Source of the DNA: Escherichia phage vB_EcoM_011D4
Strand: one strand, 5' to 3'
DNA: 64,000 nt
Sequence record: MT478991.1
Numbering within the stretch: the first letter of the stretch is position 1; each line of letters opens with the position of its first letter. Positions 29,062 through 37,287 of the stretch are shown in pieces. A program made the position numbers and the translations under genes. Under the pieces are notes generated by a model. It was not told where the DNA came from. It did no database searches and worked only from the letters and a program-made list of their open reading frames with translations.

Positions 29062-30119
29062 TGAAAATTAGTGTTATCAATGATGCCGTTGATAGCTTTA
29101 AAGCGGGGGTTAAAACCTCCGCTGGTTTTACCTCAAAAAATAAAGGGAAAACATTAACCGCTCAATTCCCCGCTGAACGTGCTAGCGGTAATGATGCTAG
29201 CGGTTATTATATCAACGACTTATATAATAATGGTCTGTTATTCACTGCATACGATTATACATCTCGTACTACTGGATCGTTGCGTGATTTCAGGAAAAAG
29301 AAAAATGTTGCTAGCGGTTTTGGCGGTAGCGTTAATATCGCTGGTTTTGATTTAAATTTGGGTGGGAGAAATGCTGCATTTGACCGAGAGGCAATTGCTA
29401 ATATTCTTCTTCCTCGTAGTCAATCTGACGTTGACGCTGCTAGCCATAAGTTTAATGATGTTGGTGAATCTGTCATTTCTCGCGGCGGTGGTACTTTAGG
29501 CGGTGCTCTTTCTAATATGGCATCTACTGCCGTTTTTGGTGGTATCGAAAGTATTACTGGTGGATACCTTGCCGATCACGGTGAACAGATTTATAATACT
29601 GCGCGAAGCATGTATGCGGGTGCTGACGCACGAACTAAAAACTACGTATGGCATCTAACCCCACGTAGTATTGAAGACCTTCGCAATATTCTGATCATAT
29701 ACGAAACGTTTTTAGAATTGTCTTATGGTTCTAGTGGTATTTCCAGCACCGCAAAAGAATTAAAAGCGGAAGTTGATGCGTGGTATAAAAAAACACTATT
29801 GAGAAAATCCACCCCAGAGGAAGCGAAGAGAAATGATACTCTGTTTGAAGGGATCACCGATTTTCTATCAAACGCAATTACTGTATCTAACCCGACAATA
29901 TGGATGATCTCTAACTTCGGTAAGCGTACATCGTTTGAAGGGCGTAGCGATGCATTTGGTCCCGCTCAGATCTCAAGTGTACGTCTGGACAAGTCGCCTG
30001 ATGGTAAGTTTAATGGCCTTGCTATTTCTCCTAACTTGCCGAGTACCTTTGTTCTGGAAGTATCATTTAGAGAGATCTTGACACTTTCCCGTGGTACTAT
30101 ATTTGGGAGTGCGGCATAA
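29061..30119 (+). CDS. 48: baseplate tail-tube junction protein gp48
   Basis: 352 aa, T4 order. Confidence 0.88.
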   Translation: MKISVINDAVDSFKAGVKTSAGFTSKNKGKTLTAQFPAERASGNDASGYYINDLYNNGLLFTAYDYTSRTTGSLRDFRKKKNVASGFGGSVNIAGFDLNLGGRNAAFDREAIANILLPRSQSDVDAASHKFNDVGESVISRGGGTLGGALSNMASTAVFGGIESITGGYLADHGEQIYNTARSMYAGADARTKNYVWHLTPRSIEDLRNILIIYETFLELSYGSSGISSTAKELKAEVDAWYKKTLLRKSTPEEAKRNDTLFEGITDFLSNAITVSNPTIWMISNFGKRTSFEGRSDAFGPAQISSVRLDKSPDGKFNGLAISPNLPSTFVLEVSFREILTLSRGTIFGSAA

Positions 30120-31051
30120 TGTTTGATTTAAATGACTTTAACGAACAAGCCGCTAACCTTGACTTTCAGCGATCTAACTTATTCAGCGTGGCATTTGCCA
30201 CCACTCCAAGTAATAAGACACAAGCGATCCTAGAAAGTATGGGCGGTGCGGTATATGATATTATACCAAATGCATTAAATGACTATTTCGGGATTACTCG
30301 TGGTGATTATACTGACGCATTAACAAATCTTGCTGTACAGGGTGTTAGGCGTGCTGTTGATTCATCCGGTGTCAAAAAGTATCTTTTAGGTGCAATGTCA
30401 TCCCGCGTAGTTCAATCTCTTCTGGGGCAATTTGATGTTGGTACGTATGCGCTTGACTGGTTCAATATGGCATATAAGACAAGCGGTCTTCTGGTGTATG
30501 CTGTTAAGGTTCCAGAAAACAGATTGAATTATGAAATGGACCGTAACCACAATGCGCCAAACATTCGAATTACCGGACGTGATTTTGATCCGCTTGTATT
30601 GAGCTTTAGAATGGACTCTAGCGCATCAAACTATAGAGCAATGCAGGATTGGGTTAACTCAGTAGAAGACCCCGTTACAGGGCTTCGTGCGCTTCCTGTT
30701 GACGTTGAAGCAGATATTCAGGTCAACTTACATAACCGAATGGGAGTTCCTCACACGATCATGATGTTTAATGGTTGTGTTCCTGTTGGTGTGAGTGCAC
30801 CGGAATTAAACTATGAAAACAACAACGAAATCACAACATTCGATGTTACTTTCGCATATCGTTCTATGCAAACTGGTGCTGTAGGAGAGCAAGCCGCGCG
30901 AGAATGGATTGAGGATAAGGCAATAAACGCAATAACAAACACGTTCGGCAATAATTTACTTGATAGTGGGTTATCTGCTGCTGGTAATGCTTTATCGCGT
31001 CTAAATGGCGTTGGTGGGCGTGTGGTGAATACTGTCACTAACTGGTTCTGA
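30119..31051 (+). CDS. 54: baseplate tail-tube initiator gp54
   Basis: 310 aa, gp19-like, T4 order. Confidence 0.88.
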   Translation: MFDLNDFNEQAANLDFQRSNLFSVAFATTPSNKTQAILESMGGAVYDIIPNALNDYFGITRGDYTDALTNLAVQGVRRAVDSSGVKKYLLGAMSSRVVQSLLGQFDVGTYALDWFNMAYKTSGLLVYAVKVPENRLNYEMDRNHNAPNIRITGRDFDPLVLSFRMDSSASNYRAMQDWVNSVEDPVTGLRALPVDVEADIQVNLHNRMGVPHTIMMFNGCVPVGVSAPELNYENNNEITTFDVTFAYRSMQTGAVGEQAAREWIEDKAINAITNTFGNNLLDSGLSAAGNALSRLNGVGGRVVNTVTNWF

Positions 31052-31060
31052 TAAGCGAAA

Positions 31061-31088
31061 GGCGGGGATAATCCCCGCCTTTTTATTT
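31061..31088 (+). terminator. rho-independent terminator ending the baseplate operon
   Basis: GGCGGGGA-TAA-TCCCCGCC + TTTTTATTT. Confidence 0.8.
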
Positions 31089-31598
31089 GATTAAATCATC
31101 ACATTGTTTGCGTAGTTTATAGCGATACTGTTTTGATTGTAGCAATTGAAGTTTTTCATAATCCCCTTCCTCATATGCAGCCGAAAGATCATCTTGATAT
31201 GCTGCTTCCGTCCCGATTACACATACTCCAAATTTTCTACGACGGTCGGCATCTTCCATTGCTTTGCGATTCATTTCTTCAATTGAATTTTCATGACCAT
31301 AATAATATTCGTAAATGCGTTTCTTCTCTGCTTCTTTATCTGCCTTAATCTTTGCGATCTGTTCTGCTGATTCCGGTTGACGACCTAAACGCTGTAATGA
31401 GGCGTCTTTCTTTTCAAGGTAGTCAATAACGCAATCTTCAACGCTATTAAATGGAAAACGTGACTCTTTCTGCCATCGTTCACATGACCGTACAAACTCG
31501 TGTGTATTCTTAGATGCAAGTGCCAGATCATGCACAGCGCACCCATTAAGCATAGCCACTAAAGCCGCAGCAAGACCAATCAGTTTAATCATTTTCAT
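31083..31598 (-). CDS. putative lipoprotein
   Basis: 171 aa; N-terminal signal peptide with Cys (LAAALVAMLNGC). Confidence 0.5.
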   Translation of the reverse strand: MKMIKLIGLAAALVAMLNGCAVHDLALASKNTHEFVRSCERWQKESRFPFNSVEDCVIDYLEKKDASLQRLGRQPESAEQIAKIKADKEAEKKRIYEYYYGHENSIEEMNRKAMEDADRRRKFGVCVIGTEAAYQDDLSAAYEEGDYEKLQLLQSKQYRYKLRKQCDDLIK

Positions 31599-32419
31599 TT
31601 AGTCACCTCACCGAAAATTGTAAATTGTCTACGATTCTCATCACCGAAAGATTCTACTACGTCGTTTACCTTGACGCAAGTCCCGCGCGGTAAAATTACT
31701 TCACATTCGCAAGGATTCCATGCAATTGACCCAACAACAAAACCTTTATGATCTTTTACGTCAATTACCCACGATACATTACAAGAATGTTGCATCTTTC
31801 CGGTCATGGATTCATATCGATTCTCACAATAAAGGCTAGTGCTGTTTGATAGCCAGCCTCCAAAGATGATCGGTGTCATGCTGGTTGACACAAAGTTTTT
31901 AAAGGTAAATTCCTTATCTTCAATAATACGCTCTATTGTCTGAATGTCAAGATGTTGACCGCGATAAAGAGTACCGTTTAACTTTTCGGTTTTATCCATG
32001 ACGCAATCCATCAAATCAACAATCTCTGATATCTCATCGGTCATGTCTTCTTCCCCTAAGAGAGCACCATTTACCCATTCGTATTGTTCAGACACATAAT
32101 CACAGATTGCATTATATTCTGCTGGGGTTATGTTGTTATGTTTGTAATGTTTGAATACATTATCTCCAAAGTCTTCGGAGTGTACTTCATACATCACATT
32201 AATGATTTTCTTGACAAATCCATAATCTTGTGTCTCACGCTCAAGGAAGCGGATAACCTTCACATAATCATCAAAGTTAATCTGATCGCTGATCATCTCA
32301 GTGATCATGTAACCATTAATCCCCTCAATGTCATATGTTTCGATGTAATTATCCATACGTTCCATCATTGATTCGCGTGATTCTTCTGAAAGACGAAAAT
32401 CCTGTAATTTCTTGAACAT
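31595..32419 (-). CDS. ADP-ribosyltransferase, Alt/Mod-family paralogue
   Basis: 274 aa; R-S-E triad TLYRGQ, FVSTS, CECEVILPRG parallels the Alt C-terminus. Confidence 0.7.
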   Translation of the reverse strand: MFKKLQDFRLSEESRESMMERMDNYIETYDIEGINGYMITEMISDQINFDDYVKVIRFLERETQDYGFVKKIINVMYEVHSEDFGDNVFKHYKHNNITPAEYNAICDYVSEQYEWVNGALLGEEDMTDEISEIVDLMDCVMDKTEKLNGTLYRGQHLDIQTIERIIEDKEFTFKNFVSTSMTPIIFGGWLSNSTSLYCENRYESMTGKMQHSCNVSWVIDVKDHKGFVVGSIAWNPCECEVILPRGTCVKVNDVVESFGDENRRQFTIFGEVTK

Positions 32420-32451
32420 TTTAAGCCTCCCATATAACAGAAAACGGGGCT

Positions 32452-32480
32452 AGTATAAAACTAGTCCCCGTTTGAGTCAA
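32452..32480 (-). promoter_or_regulatory. sigma70-type early promoter inside a stem-loop
   Basis: Minus strand TTGACT-N17-TATACT; hairpin CGGGGACTAG..CTAGCCCCG spans the -10; also ends alt. Confidence 0.6.
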
Positions 32481-32497
32481 CCATTATTTCTTAAAAA

Positions 32498-34549
32498 TTA
32501 CATTTTAAATTTATCTGGCATTGCGTCTACAGATACCAGATCAGCGATAAGCTGACGTAGAGTTGCCTTATCTGCTTTCTTACGTTCGGTTTTAGCTTCG
32601 CTAATGAAGCTGGAGAAAGACAGGTCAGAAGCAGGTTTAACAACACCTTCACGGATGAATGCATCACCGTCCGCGATCATCTCGCCAGATTCTTGTAATG
32701 CTGCCAGTTCATTTTTGTTCATAATATGTGCCTCAATGTAATAAGTTTCTTGTGAATCCGTCGATGCCGTAGCACGAGTTACCGTATCAAAGGATAACAC
32801 AACACCGCGAGGAAGTAAAATCTCGCATTCTTTGTAAGCAAATGCTTTGTTACCTACTGGCAAGACAGGGATGTTTTCCGCGCCAGCAATGGAGAAAGCA
32901 ACATTAGCGCCACCTTCACCGCGAGAGCCAGCCATAGAATCAACACCAGCAACGGCACTAGCCACGTTTGCATTCCAGCCGCCAAAAATGTTAGGTGCAA
33001 GGGAAGTGCTCACATAGTTTTTAAAGTAAAACGCTTTTTGCTTACGTGCAGTTTCCCACATTTGCGACCGGAAGTCCATACCACGATACAGAATAGTACC
33101 CGGATCAAGTTTAACTCCATAGTTGGAGAAGGCATTATCCAGTGCATCACACATCTTGACCAATTCTTCTGGATCTGCGATGCCTTCAAACTCTTCCAGC
33201 TTACGGTCGGTTAGGAAGTTGTTCATATTGATGTATGCTGCATCGGCATATTCGCTCAACACAAAACCTTCCGCGCCAGGCAGATCAAGATCAATATCTG
33301 CCATCATTTCACCCATGTTGCTAGCAATTGCTTCAAACATACCGGAAGCAACATTACGTAGGGCATCGGTTTTAATCTGGGTGATATGACTACGCAACAT
33401 TTCAGCTTTTACATCTGCTGGCATAGACTGGTCTACTCGATCCATTGCCAGAGCGGTGATCTTGTTTTCGAATACTTCCTCGCTCATGATTTCTTTTAAG
33501 CGTTTGATTGATGCTGCGATAACTTCCGCAGACAACGGATCATATTGATCCTGAACTTTTACCAGTTCGCTTACTGCGTATTTTGCATCGGCTTCGCTTT
33601 CAAAAATAGTACGCATGAAACCATAGCGAGTGATAATATCACTTGTCCAGTCATTCAGAGAACGGGCGGTTGAACGTTCTAAGGCTTGACGATCAATCAG
33701 AGTATTAAACTGTTTCTTAGGTTCGGCTTCGGTGATATCTTCTTCCGGTTTAAGATTAATTTTTTCTGGATGATTCACATAGTCGCTGTTATAGGTCGCT
33801 TGAGTTTTCAGCATTTCTTCTTTAGTCAAACGAGATTTAGCCGCTACGCGTTGTTCCGCTTCCGCGTTTCGTTCTTCTTCTGACACAAGACTAGCCGCAT
33901 ACGCCTCATCTTTAGTCAGAGATTCACCAGTAGCCTTAGATACCCAGCGATCACCTAAATCACTTTCTACTTTAGTGAACAAGGATTCATCAAGTTTAAT
34001 CCCTTTAATCTTATCAATCGCCATACCGCGACGCTTGACAACAACTAAAGCGATCTTTTTGCTGGTCATTACTTCCTGCTGGAATACTTCAAACTTCGGT
34101 GTACGACGCACCAAACGCTCTATAACGCGCTTAACCAGTTCGGTCTTACCTTTCATGCGGGATACGTTAAAACGGAACATAACAGCGTCTAACTGCGCTT
34201 TACGGGCTGTTTCCATAACCACATCAAAAGCACTTGCCATAACTGCAATCGGGTTATCGCCTAGACCATTTTTAAGCTGTACAATACGACCGCTTTTGTT
34301 CATTTCGCACAGTACAACATGTGCGGTCTTGTCACCCATACGAATGATTTTAGGTGTTTTGTTGGTGAAGTTACAAAGACGGACAATCACATCTTTATCG
34401 CGTGTCTGTACTGCAAAAAGCTGTTTAGGATTCTGCTTAGGCTTTAAGCACTGTACCGGGGCAATACTACCAAAGTTTTCTTCCTCTTCCGTCAACAGCC
34501 ATTTCTCGAAAGATTCAATCATTAGATCGTCGATTTCTAAGTTAAACAT
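32498..34549 (-). CDS. alt: Alt ADP-ribosyltransferase (head-packaged)
   Basis: 683 aa; C-terminal ART motifs YRG, STS, ECE; downstream of gp54 as in T4. Confidence 0.88.
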   Translation of the reverse strand: MFNLEIDDLMIESFEKWLLTEEEENFGSIAPVQCLKPKQNPKQLFAVQTRDKDVIVRLCNFTNKTPKIIRMGDKTAHVVLCEMNKSGRIVQLKNGLGDNPIAVMASAFDVVMETARKAQLDAVMFRFNVSRMKGKTELVKRVIERLVRRTPKFEVFQQEVMTSKKIALVVVKRRGMAIDKIKGIKLDESLFTKVESDLGDRWVSKATGESLTKDEAYAASLVSEEERNAEAEQRVAAKSRLTKEEMLKTQATYNSDYVNHPEKINLKPEEDITEAEPKKQFNTLIDRQALERSTARSLNDWTSDIITRYGFMRTIFESEADAKYAVSELVKVQDQYDPLSAEVIAASIKRLKEIMSEEVFENKITALAMDRVDQSMPADVKAEMLRSHITQIKTDALRNVASGMFEAIASNMGEMMADIDLDLPGAEGFVLSEYADAAYINMNNFLTDRKLEEFEGIADPEELVKMCDALDNAFSNYGVKLDPGTILYRGMDFRSQMWETARKQKAFYFKNYVSTSLAPNIFGGWNANVASAVAGVDSMAGSRGEGGANVAFSIAGAENIPVLPVGNKAFAYKECEILLPRGVVLSFDTVTRATASTDSQETYYIEAHIMNKNELAALQESGEMIADGDAFIREGVVKPASDLSFSSFISEAKTERKKADKATLRQLIADLVSVDAMPDKFKM

Positions 34550-34589
34550 TTTATATCCTCTAGTTGATAACCTATAAACCTATATTTAT

Positions 34590-34611
34590 GAAAACGGGGC
34601 TTAACGCCCCA
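34590..34611 (-). terminator. terminator hairpin (minus strand)
   Basis: Minus strand GGGGCGTTAAGCCCC + GTTTT. Confidence 0.6.
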
Positions 34612-34615
34612 TTTA

Positions 34616-34828
34616 TTATAATGCACCATCGAGCAATTGCTCTAAGGTGTATCCTGAATAGTCTTTTTCAATCAGGATATATTTTCCTACTCGTTTAATA
34701 CAACCACGCATTTCAACGTATTCTGCGTAGTTGATGGTACGAGTTGTTCCATCTTCCAGTAATGCAGTACCGATTTCGTTAATGCGGTCATAAGTTACGT
34801 CGGTAATGATGATTTCGATGTTAGCCAT
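34616..34828 (-). CDS. hypothetical early protein
   Basis: 70 aa behind consensus early promoter and conserved leader. Confidence 0.5.
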   Translation of the reverse strand: MANIEIIITDVTYDRINEIGTALLEDGTTRTINYAEYVEMRGCIKRVGKYILIEKDYSGYTLEQLLDGAL

Positions 34829-34864
34829 TTGATACTCCTTAGTAGTTCGTTTCGGTATGGGTGT

Positions 34865-34893
34865 ATTATGATATACACCCTCTGTTATGTCAA
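34865..34893 (-). promoter_or_regulatory. sigma70-type early promoter
   Basis: Minus strand TTGACA-N17-CATAAT then ACACCCATACCGAAACGA leader. Confidence 0.6.
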
Positions 34894-34899
34894 CAACTT

Positions 34900-35079
34900 T
34901 TAGAACATTTTTGAAATTAATTCTGCTTTGATTTCGCAGAGAACATCTAAAGATTTCTCGTCACCTGCTTTTGCGGCTTCTGCTTGCATTTTTGAAATGG
35001 CTTCAATGTCAGTGCAATTATAAGCCGCTTGAACTTTAGCGATTGCGATGATTGCCGATTCGATGGTTAATTGTTTCAT
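34900..35079 (-). CDS. hypothetical early protein (59 aa)
   Basis: ATG after AGGAGAATCAAAC leader; not in ORF track. Confidence 0.45.
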   Translation of the reverse strand: MKQLTIESAIIAIAKVQAAYNCTDIEAISKMQAEAAKAGDEKSLDVLCEIKAELISKMF

Positions 35080-35111
35080 GTTTGATTCTCCTTTCGTTTC
35101 GGTATGGGTGT

Positions 35112-35140
35112 ATTATAGGGGATCGATGATCCCCTGTCAA
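35112..35140 (-). promoter_or_regulatory. early promoter with palindromic spacer (PeSL-like)
   Basis: Minus strand TTGACA-GGGGATCATCGATCCCC-TATAAT. Confidence 0.7.
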
Positions 35141-35148
35141 CAAATTTT

Positions 35149-35667
35149 TTAGTTATTTTTTAATTGCTCATCTTGCAATAGGGCAATCACATGCTGGCGA
35201 TGTTCTTCCGATTGAGGCACACCGAAAAAGTTTGTTTTGTAGAAATACTCTAATCGGTCTTCTCGTGTGCTCTCTTCCATCATGATCGCGGGTAGTCCGA
35301 GATTTCGGAAACGTCGCTTTTCTGCTGGCGTAAAATCACTGTAATACAACATAGAATCATCATTACAAGCAATGCTAAACTCATCCTTCATAAAGGAGAA
35401 TATTGCGTTTAAACGCTGTTTACCGTCCACGATTTCGATCTCATAGCGAGAGCCATCATCAATCTTAGCCATTGCGATAGCACCAACCGGAAAATCATTA
35501 ATCAGGTTTTCGATAAACATACGTTTGTTTTCGGTGTCCCATACTAAAGGACGCTGATAATCTGGGTTCATGTTGATATAGCCATCTTCTAACCATGCAT
35601 CATAAACAGAGATGACAAAGTTTTTAGTATTGGTATAGTAACGGCGTTTAGGCGTTAAACGGTTCAT
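35149..35667 (-). CDS. DUF262 / ParB-like nuclease-domain protein
   Basis: DYQRPLVWD...FPVGAI...IVDGKQRLNAI matches the DUF262 signature; start taken at MNRL with RBS AGGAGA. Confidence 0.65.
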   Translation of the reverse strand: MNRLTPKRRYYTNTKNFVISVYDAWLEDGYINMNPDYQRPLVWDTENKRMFIENLINDFPVGAIAMAKIDDGSRYEIEIVDGKQRLNAIFSFMKDEFSIACNDDSMLYYSDFTPAEKRRFRNLGLPAIMMEESTREDRLEYFYKTNFFGVPQSEEHRQHVIALLQDEQLKNN

Positions 35668-35668
35668 G

Positions 35669-35998
35669 TTATAGTCTCCTGAATGGATCATCACGTAAAT
35701 CAATATCTTTTAAGAACTCATCCCATGAATGGCGGATGTTGTTCTTAATTCTCCAGATAAGAGCAGGGATTGAACGCTCTCCCATCTGGAAGTATGGATC
35801 ATATGATCCGTATGCCCAATATGCTACTACAATTCCACAATCAGCGCAATAGTATTCTATTTCACTTGCTGGCGACCAAAGTCCATCAATATGATCGGTG
35901 ATCTTGCTTTCGATGTTATGGCTATGACAATCAGGGCAACGGATGCAATGACCTTGTTTATCGTAATTTGACGTTAGCGAATACTTAAACAATCTCAT
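35669..35998 (-). CDS. zinc-ribbon protein
   Basis: 109 aa; CIRCPDC...CADC; start/stop coupled with flanking genes. Confidence 0.5.
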   Translation of the reverse strand: MRLFKYSLTSNYDKQGHCIRCPDCHSHNIESKITDHIDGLWSPASEIEYYCADCGIVVAYWAYGSYDPYFQMGERSIPALIWRIKNNIRHSWDEFLKDIDLRDDPFRRL

Positions 35999-36714
35999 TA
36001 TAGATCCTTATTTGCTTCAAATACTGCCTTTGCGAATCCTCGCGGGGTAAGTGACCTTATAGTCTTTGTTTTCGTTCCTTTCCCGCCTAGCTTAGAATGC
36101 TGTTTACTGTACCCTTTATTAATCTGCAACGGTTTCTTTTCTGGCATTATAAAGCCTTGTCCGGTCCATAAGCAAGTCTTTTTCGGGTACATATCACGGG
36201 CGGCAATATACTCAGGAAACGTAGGATGCTTATCATCTTCCGGCAAATAACCGCCATATTCCCACGGATGGAACATGTAATCAGGCTTACGCCACATGCT
36301 AGAGATAACGCTTACAGGATTCTCTATCATGTAGGGAACTCCGAGCCATTCACCCAAATAAGCGGTTATTTTAGCTGCCCGTACATCATGAACTTGAATC
36401 AATGGTCCTTGTTCTCGTTTCTTTCGTTCAAAGTGCGCAGCGCCACTAACAGCTAAATTGGTGCACGGTGGGAATGCAAAGATAATATCCGGTTTCCCCC
36501 ATTCAAGGTCCATTGCTCTTTCCAGCCAGTTCAAATCAATCCAGGTGTTTACATAGGTAATGTTTGGATGTTCAAATCTGGTATTATACTTTTTGTATGT
36601 ACCGTGGTCGGCGTCATCCGCATTAAAGCAGACTACCTTATGACCTGCTTTAGCCCATTCTAGCCCCATTATCCCCGATCCGTCAAAGTTGCAGAATATT
36701 AATTTTTGTTTCAT
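35998..36714 (-). CDS. compact DNA (cytosine-5)-methyltransferase-like protein
   Basis: 238 aa; motif I FDGSG, motif IV FAFPPCTNLAVSG (Pro-Cys), motif VI MIENP, motif IX RSLTPRGF. Confidence 0.6.
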   Translation of the reverse strand: MKQKLIFCNFDGSGIMGLEWAKAGHKVVCFNADDADHGTYKKYNTRFEHPNITYVNTWIDLNWLERAMDLEWGKPDIIFAFPPCTNLAVSGAAHFERKKREQGPLIQVHDVRAAKITAYLGEWLGVPYMIENPVSVISSMWRKPDYMFHPWEYGGYLPEDDKHPTFPEYIAARDMYPKKTCLWTGQGFIMPEKKPLQINKGYSKQHSKLGGKGTKTKTIRSLTPRGFAKAVFEANKDL

Positions 36715-36956
36715 ATACGACCCTTTAACCCAGCACAGATTTTAGTCGGTTCTTTACCGTGCCACATTAAGTAAATTCCGTTAATGCGTCCTTGTTTTGT
36801 ATATGATTCTTTTCTGATCTTCTTATAGTGTCGTGCTTCCTCCGCCGATTGTTTAGAATGTCGGTCATAAAGGAAGAGGAACAAAGGCCAACCATTAGCG
36901 ACCTTAATGCAGTTATTCAAAAATTCCTTATTTCGTTTAATTAATTTTCTTTTCAC
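36711..36956 (-). CDS. hypothetical basic protein
   Basis: 81 aa; ATGA coupling on both sides. Confidence 0.5.
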   Translation of the reverse strand: MKRKLIKRNKEFLNNCIKVANGWPLFLFLYDRHSKQSAEEARHYKKIRKESYTKQGRINGIYLMWHGKEPTKICAGLKGRI

Positions 36957-37204
36957 GCTGCCCCCATTGGTTTGATAGTAACCGAATCTAAAAGACCTTT
37001 GTTAGCCAGTTCGCGGCAAGTTTTCAGATCCGCAACTTCCCAGCCAGCCGCAATCAGGTTATCAATGAGGCTGTTAGCAACTTCTTCGCTCATGAAAGAG
37101 CACTGTTTGCCGATGGTGTAGCGCACACGCTGTAATTTCAGTTTACGGAAGCCTTTAACGTTCAGGTCTTTAGCGATTTTCTTTGCGGTTTCGATGTTAG
37201 CCAT
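36953..37204 (-). CDS. hypothetical protein (first gene of operon)
   Basis: 83 aa directly behind promoter. Confidence 0.5.
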   Translation of the reverse strand: MANIETAKKIAKDLNVKGFRKLKLQRVRYTIGKQCSFMSEEVANSLIDNLIAAGWEVADLKTCRELANKGLLDSVTIKPMGAA

Positions 37205-37244
37205 TGTTTGATTCTCCTAAGTGGTATCTCGTCTTGATGGTTGT

Positions 37245-37273
37245 ATTGTAGGGGAGTTATCCTCCCCTGTCAA
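37245..37273 (-). promoter_or_regulatory. early promoter with palindromic spacer (PeSL-like)
   Basis: Minus strand TTGACA-GGGGAGGATAACTCCCC-TACAAT. Confidence 0.65.
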
Positions 37274-37287
37274 CACTTTTTATAAAA

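Follow-up and report, generated by a model that had tools for sequence, protein, structure and literature searches.

The window analysed here, a stretch of 64,000 nucleotides (nt) from Escherichia phage vB_EcoM_011D4 (MT478991.1), encodes two adjacent ADP-ribosyltransferases (ARTs), namely a 683-amino acid (aa) orthologue of the T4 Alt protein and a 274-aa protein, referred to below as the short ART. The two genes are separated by a composite terminator and early promoter of the promoter-early stem-loop (PeSL) type, and a predicted lipoprotein gene follows that of the short ART (Table 1). Phage ARTs are of interest since Alt acts on MazF and ModB carries out RNAylation, with host defences based on nicotinamide adenine dinucleotide (NAD) also emerging. 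Both genes of the window are genuine and look functional.

Table 1. Features of the region spanning alt, the short ART gene and their flanks (positions in the window; ORF, open reading frame)
Feature	Position	Strand	Basis or remarks
Intrinsic-terminator-like hairpin, GGGGC-gttaa-GCCCC, then TTTT	34596..34610	-	Palindrome scan; 3' of an early 70-aa ORF
Late-promoter-like octamer, CATAAATA	34583..34590	-	First base 41 nt from the alt ATG
alt (683-aa T4 Alt orthologue)	32498..34549	-	ORF
PeSL, composite terminator/early promoter (predicted)	32442..32480	-	Promoter scan, fold, conservation
PeSL -35 box, TTGACT	32480-32475	-	17-nt spacer to the -10 box
PeSL -10 box, TATACT	32457-32452	-	
Short ART (274 aa)	31595..32419	-	ORF; GGGAGG ribosome-binding site upstream
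Short ART codon R153	31961-31963	-	Catalytic
Short ART codons S178-T-S180	31880-31888	-	Catalytic
Short ART codons E238-C-E240	31700-31708	-	Catalytic
Predicted lipoprotein (171 aa)	31083..31598	-	Signal peptide, lipobox LNGC; begins MKMIKLIGLAAALVAMLNGC
Bidirectional terminator	31057..31083	.	Between convergent gene 54 (+) and the short-ART/lipoprotein unit (-); 12-bp stem, 7 GC pairs

Catalytic motifs and predicted fold

Two adjacent ART genes with the same catalytic motifs had been proposed in an earlier reading of the letters alone (the sequence-only reading), and the ORFs, motifs, domain matches and direct comparison agree with this. The translation of alt contains the motifs LYR489G, S514-T-S516 and E574-C-E576, while that of the short ART contains LYR153GQ, FVS178-T-S180 and CE238-C-E240-VILPRG. 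Pfam family PF03496 (ADPrib_exo_Tox; curated cut-off of 23.4 bits) matches the short ART with 59.3 bits (E 4e-16; residues 82-266) and Alt with 37.3 bits (E 2e-9; residues 425-610), and BLASTP comparison of the two proteins aligned 109 aa of the catalytic core with 37 % identity (E 1e-16). The catalytic motifs are invariant both in an alignment of the short-ART family, comprising six lineages (A4), and in one of nine Alt proteins (A5), and the R/STS/ExE motifs align with those of Tre1 (PDB 6dre). All three features used to recognise the R-S-E clade, i.e. the PF03496 score, the Arg/S-T-S/(E/Q)-x-E motifs and a predicted ART fold, are found in the short ART, which, because of its E-x-E motif, is probably an arginine-specific mono-ART.

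The AlphaFold2 (AF2) model of the short ART (mean predicted local distance difference test, pLDDT, 80.5; predicted template modelling score, pTM, 0.77) comprises seven helices followed by a beta core, with R153, STS and E240 placed in or at strands 150-158, 177-180 and 240-243, respectively. Foldseek comparison against the PDB yielded Vis, Certhrax, C3bot, CDTa, iota Ia and Tre1 as top matches (E 3e-10 to 1e-8; ~215-225 aligned columns). Among viral models the short ART groups with Alt-type and 'split Alt' proteins, and no Mod protein occurs in its top 50 viral fold matches. On the basis of the model, the short ART is predicted to have a C3/VIP2/Vis-type NAD-binding fold. Loss of the catalytic Glu or of this fold was what the sequence-only reading had named as fatal to it; the Glu is kept in the sequence and the fold in the AF2 model. 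The short ART shares the predicted fold and catalytic motifs with the C3/VIP2/iota/Vis/Tre1 R-S-E toxins, but unlike these toxins, to which it is 13-19 % identical, it is phage-encoded and carries a family-specific conserved loop after STS.

This loop (GGWLSNSTSLYCENRY; residues 187-204, window 31808-31861, minus strand) includes ten positions that are invariant across six lineages at 42-83 % identity, with the motif GGWxxNSTSLYCExxY (residues 187-202) invariant in the short-ART family. Residues 187-210 are poorly modelled by AF2, the pLDDT of the loop being <50. Being invariant yet poorly modelled, the loop may be an element dedicated to binding a substrate, or possibly a partner, that is peculiar to the short-ART family.

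Origin and conservation of the alt-derived pair

Residues 16-683 of Alt align with positions 2-674 of the 674 positions of PHROG 802 (E 7e-180). Its identity to T4 Alt is 27 % along the full-length alignment A5, in which invariant columns run from Q43 to F681, in the N-terminal and catalytic parts alike, and its catalytic domain spans approximately residues 372-610. This full-length similarity, together with the location between the ligase-side early genes and gene 54, marks the 683-aa protein as the orthologue of T4 Alt, and the gene is annotated as alt in RB49 (RefSeq).

Comparison of A4 with A5 using hhalign showed that residues 43-273 of the short ART correspond to Alt 372-610 (probability 99.95 %, E 1e-37), and the Alt PHROG profile aligns residues 8-268. 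Alt residues 1 to ~371, i.e. the ~370-aa N-terminal region that is expected of an Alt orthologue along with the C-terminal tail, are missing, as is that tail of ~70 aa (alignment A1 and hhalign). From residue 43 onward, the N-terminal half of the short ART matches the helical part of Alt that immediately precedes its catalytic core, and only ~42 N-terminal residues are without an Alt counterpart. The 'unrelated N-terminal half' of the sequence-only reading must therefore be given up: the Pfam match begins at residue 82, the hhalign match at 43, and the unique part is confined to the ~42 residues. On these alignments the short ART is an Alt-derived, catalytic-domain-only paralogue and not an Alt orthologue. 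A search with its N-terminal 95 residues alone against 1.8 billion representative proteins returned one fragment of the same protein and one repeat protein, and provided no evidence of a portable N-terminal domain. The repeat protein (P0010, with IPSLDGYAKT repeats) is a low-complexity match and was judged to be spurious.

The 4.2-kb region matches 58 phage records with 95-99 % identity. All are RB49/phi1/JSE/GEC-3S-type coliphages of the genus Krischvirus, to which the window belongs too. The short ART gene is intact in 58/58 Krischvirus records found by DNA similarity, with proteins that are 97-100 % identical (100 % in RB49, phi1 and GEC-3S), and metagenomic relatives share 83, 63, 48, 44 and 45 % identity with it. 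No substitution of R153, STS or E238/E240 is seen among the six lineages, in which identity falls to 42 %, and comparison with the 83 %-identical relative gave a ratio of nonsynonymous to synonymous substitution (dN/dS) of 0.10, at a dS of 1.1. Wherever the contig extends far enough, the short ART gene directly follows an alt gene, and in 4/5 related lineages it is itself followed by a small lipoprotein gene and then gene 54, the contig of the fifth (L013) ending first. These comparisons indicate that the short ART gene is a live gene under purifying selection and not a remnant. The score of the short ART is 67 bits with its own Alt, no higher than with T4 Alt (88 bits) or T2 Alt2 (82 bits), and the split between Alt and the short ART can thus be taken to be old.

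The pair, its paralogy and the early promoter are already known from databases and literature since 2003-2006. The short ART gene is the same gene as RB49 ORF183c/RB49p183 and its orthologues in phi1, JSE, GEC-3S and further Krischvirus phages, with an equal position between alt and gene 54 and equal flanks. RefSeq describes RB49p183 (NP_891754) as 'ADP-ribosyltransferase; similar to C-terminal part of T4 Alt protein', and RB49ORF183c was considered a paralogous duplication of the adjacent alt (Nolan et al. 2006). No functional study of RB49p183 was found in the literature. What is added here is a precise delimitation of the homology that Alt and the short ART share, the purifying selection, the deep conservation of the PeSL and the coupling to the lipoprotein gene.

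T4-like phages recurrently have a second alt-derived gene in the slot between alt and gene 54. The second alt of T2, JS98 and Citrobacter phage Ursula is full-length and in tandem, 0-35 nt from alt, without a promoter element. T4 retains only N-terminal fragments of a second alt (alt.-1 and alt.-2), whereas in the window it is the catalytic part that is present, with its own terminator/promoter cassette. The T4 fragments (L002 2066-2451) share 95-96 % identity with residues 1-56 and 62-116 of T2 alt2 (L004 2747-4804), which identifies them as deletion remnants, and most of a T2-type alt2 was accordingly lost from T4 in the fairly recent past. A full-length and a partial alt copy (ORF187c/188c) occur in 44RR (Nolan et al. 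2006), and the 'split Alt' of Acinetobacter phage ZZ1 is another second alt-derived gene. The contrast drawn in the sequence-only reading, that the short ARTs of T4 lie at a different locus, holds for modA and modB, but was overstated as alt.-1 and alt.-2 occupy the same slot in T4.

The comparison with T4 Alt, ModA and ModB proposed in that reading gave 31 % identity over 181 aa to the catalytic domain of T4 Alt, and 14-17 % to the Mod proteins in A1, with no similarity to the latter beyond the motifs. No BLAST match to ModA or ModB was obtained at E <=0.01, and neither the sequence similarity nor the srd location typical of the Mod family is found. The short ART resembles T4 ModA and ModB in its small size, R-S-ExE motifs and predicted early sigma-70 expression from the genome, but differs in its locus. 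Krischvirus genomes carry a modB-like gene, RB49p014, adjoining srd, with one copy in each genome and modA lacking. Since this gene is still at the srd locus, the short ART is an addition and not a relocated Mod, and the Krischvirus ART set therefore consists of Alt, a short Alt-like protein and one Mod. RB49p014 (L005 8917-9420, minus strand) encodes 167 aa with 33 % identity to T4 ModB and contains LYRG and E-R-E, but has S-F-T in place of S-T-S. A single mod gene is also found in many other T4-like genera.

Regulatory elements around the two genes

Upstream of alt, the intrinsic-terminator-like hairpin would shield the gene from early transcription. The same terminator was predicted in RB49 ('alt<--RB49ORF185c'; Nolan et al. 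2006), and a hairpin occurs at the equivalent place in T4 and in a 44 %-identity relative (L007). Over 29596-37276 of the minus strand, the octamer that follows, CATAAATA, is the sole sequence within one mismatch of TATAAATA. The equivalent post-hairpin position is occupied by TATAAATA in T4 and by AATAAATA in L007 (5892-5899); the first base thus varies among the window, L007 and T4, with ATAAATA and the post-hairpin position kept. Exact TATAAATA octamers in the window lie 28-41 nt upstream of late-gene starts, a range that the spacing of CATAAATA fits. The alt of the window has the same layout of terminator plus late-type octamer upstream as T4 alt, which is a late gene with its product in the virion, ModA and ModB being early proteins (PMC9697503). 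Between the octamer of alt and position 29596 no further late octamer (<=1 mismatch) was found on the minus strand, and hence none before the short ART gene, which has a sigma-70 PeSL promoter in place of the late promoter of T4 alt.

PeSLs are promoter-early stem-loop cassettes of RB49 and phi1 (PMC2839356, PMC4122927; Arbiol et al. 2010; Comeau et al. 2014), and strong promoter and terminator activity was demonstrated by experiment for PeSL193/192, 206/205 and 211/210 of phi1/RB49 (PMC2839356). On the minus strand, the 78 nt that separate alt from the short ART gene read TAA-tttttaagaaataatgg-TTGACT-caaacggggactagttt-TATACT-agccccgttttctg...GGGAGG...ATG, with a sigma-70-like promoter (10/12 matches) and a G4/C4 hairpin (32473-32442) that overlaps both the promoter spacer and the -10 box; TTTTCTGTT, with a T run, comes next. 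Folding of the 81-nt intergenic sequence gave -23 kcal/mol (z -3.35; 0/200 shuffles as good). Like the PeSLs of RB49 and phi1, the element is intergenic and AT-rich upstream, with sigma-70 hexamers ~17 nt apart, an overlapping Gn-loop-Cn stem and, thereafter, a Shine-Dalgarno sequence and ATG. The stem-loop promoter (32452-32480) assigned to the short ART in the sequence-only reading is this PeSL, sigma-70-type in its hexamers and predicted to be active. An early promoter (Pe:112388; RB49 112338-112388; score 9.3) was previously predicted exactly between alt and ORF183c (Nolan et al. 2006). Approximately a dozen similar elements occur on the minus strand of the window. Compared to typical PeSLs nearby (TTGACA-GGGGA..TCCCC-TATAAT), that between alt and the short ART has weaker hexamers (TTGACT/TATACT) and a longer hairpin, which is the most stable and most terminator-like of the local elements. 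An Rfam scan of 30900-35300 gave only sub-threshold matches, at the bidirectional terminator, and no known RNA family.

The PeSL is present in 5/5 divergent lineages (L007 7940-7985, L010, L012, L013 and L015). In its 43-nt core, identity is 100 % at a coding sequence (CDS) identity of 80 % (dS 1.1), and still 79-84 % when that of the CDS has dropped to 51-64 %. That it outconserves flanking coding DNA with saturated dS implies strong constraint or concerted evolution of the cassette. In the stem, 10/12 pairs never vary across lineages and two change on both sides.

The ATG of the lipoprotein gene overlaps the short ART stop codon (ATGA, 31595-31598), and the gene is predicted to be the second gene of the early unit, translationally coupled to the short ART. 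In 4/5 lineages, the gene immediately after the short ART encodes a homologue that has a lipobox and several conserved cysteines. The protein belongs to PHROG 16112 (unknown function), and a test of homology to T4 alt.-3, which holds the same place in T4, was negative. An early role in superinfection exclusion is only a guess. The bidirectional terminator at the end of the unit was likewise predicted in RB49 ('54-><-RB49ORF182c'; Nolan et al. 2006).

Timing and roles of the two enzymes

Taking the genes, motifs, modelled fold, homology limits, synteny, purifying selection and conservation of the regulatory elements together, we consider it probable, though by no means assured, that Alt is late and packaged and that the short ART is an early, cytoplasmic and active arginine-specific mono-ART. 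In that case a single enzyme domain would be present twice at the locus, in diverged versions whose timing of expression is opposite. By homology with T4, Alt would be synthesised late, enter the head by means of its large non-catalytic part and be injected with the DNA, where it would ADP-ribosylate arginines of host proteins, including RNA polymerase alpha, in the first seconds of infection. The PeSL hairpin would end the alt transcripts, and the embedded sigma-70 promoter would start a new early transcript that spans the short ART and the coupled lipoprotein gene and stops at the bidirectional terminator common with gene 54. The short ART would be made in the cell within the first minutes, as are T4 ModA and ModB. 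That it is early and not packaged is plausible, given its own PeSL, the lack of a late octamer and the missing Alt N-terminal region and tail. We infer, in this account, the timing of expression, the packaging, the activity of the enzymes, their specificity for arginine and their targets. If it is true, the pair of a virion-delivered and an early-made paralogue would provide a clean system for studying how one scaffold is redeployed in time and retargeted.

Several points weigh against this account. The octamer CATAAATA deviates from the late consensus TATAAATA at its first base (one mismatch), and the late-promoter list of Nolan et al. (2006) apparently has no entry for RB49 alt. Of the local promoters, the one in the PeSL ahead of the short ART gene is the weakest, with the score of 9.3 in the hidden Markov model of Nolan et al. 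(2006) comparing with 31-39 for neighbouring promoters. Its hairpin is bulged and followed by only four consecutive U, so that late read-through from alt could express the short ART late. Covariation in the stem is not significant, with 56/500 shuffles reaching the observed score and too little variation being present. Literature searches for Krischvirus expression data, virion proteomics and ART studies yielded nothing relevant. Furthermore, the unique N-terminus of the short ART contains L-S-E (residues 10-12), a possible prohead-protease-type site.

The last of these points bears on the alternative that the short ART, too, is packaged and injected, by way of late read-through from alt, prohead targeting by the N-terminus and cleavage at L-S-E. 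Its N-terminus (MFKKLQDFRLSE/E, with the slash marking cleavage) contains an (L/I)-x-E site and is loosely similar to MKTYQEFIAE/, the capsid targeting sequence of T4 internal proteins. The weak PeSL promoter and imperfect terminator would suit such a route, and many phage ARTs are head-packaged (PMC9503650). However, the N-terminal motif is not kept in relatives at 42-63 % identity, no other ORF with the motif was found in the window or in RB49 1-50 kb and 108-118 kb, and AF2 makes residues 11-28 a confident helix of the folded domain. With both Alt-specific non-catalytic regions missing and no late octamer present as well, packaging of the short ART seems quite improbable. As a capsid-targeting sequence the N-terminus was set aside, the motif being unconserved and unique among the ORFs examined. 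That the short ART is instead a decaying, functionless remnant of a duplication, like T4 alt.-1 and alt.-2, has in its favour that non-catalytic fragments of a second alt occupy the same position in T4, and that ORF183c was placed with the T4 fragments as alt duplications (Nolan et al. 2006). This is barely credible in view of a frame that is intact in 58 genomes and five divergent lineages, invariant catalytic residues, the low dN/dS, a conserved promoter and ribosome-binding site of its own and a complete ART fold in the model, and on conservation and dN/dS the remnant or pseudogene reading was rejected.

The substrate of the short ART may also lie beyond the arginines of host proteins, for instance if it transfers NAD-capped RNA (RNAylation), modifies nucleic acids or small molecules, or counters a host defence based on NAD/ADP-ribose. 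The RNAylation by T4 ModB (PMC9503650; bioRxiv 10.1101/2021.06.04.446905) is a precedent, and the invariant, poorly modelled loop suggests a dedicated substrate-binding element. The E-x-E and R-S-E architecture and the Alt-type core, however, most simply predict modification of protein arginines, and the sequence holds no specific pointer to RNA or DNA substrates, making a non-arginine substrate unlikely. The short ART could tentatively be seen as a dedicated early effector with targets unlike those of Alt, a possibility we entertain with some doubt. It may stand in for the missing ModA and complete the modification of RNA polymerase alpha, or may counteract a defence or toxin of the host, and it may also form a conserved two-gene early module with the lipoprotein; GGWxxNSTSLYCExxY would then serve to recognise the substrate.

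Antisense ORFs on the plus strand inside alt (33975-34577; 200 aa) and inside the short ART gene (32084-32371; 95 aa) have no family matches, are unannotated in every related record and are most likely spurious. Further upstream on the minus strand, a 184-aa ORF (35149-35703) matches only the N-terminal part of GmrSD_N (DUF262; Pfam E 7e-20, profile positions 7-78 of 199), and has the appearance of a fragment, either truncated or free-standing, of a type IV restriction-like protein within an early-gene cluster. Just upstream of this ORF, a putative DNA methyltransferase of 238 aa is encoded (35998-36714).

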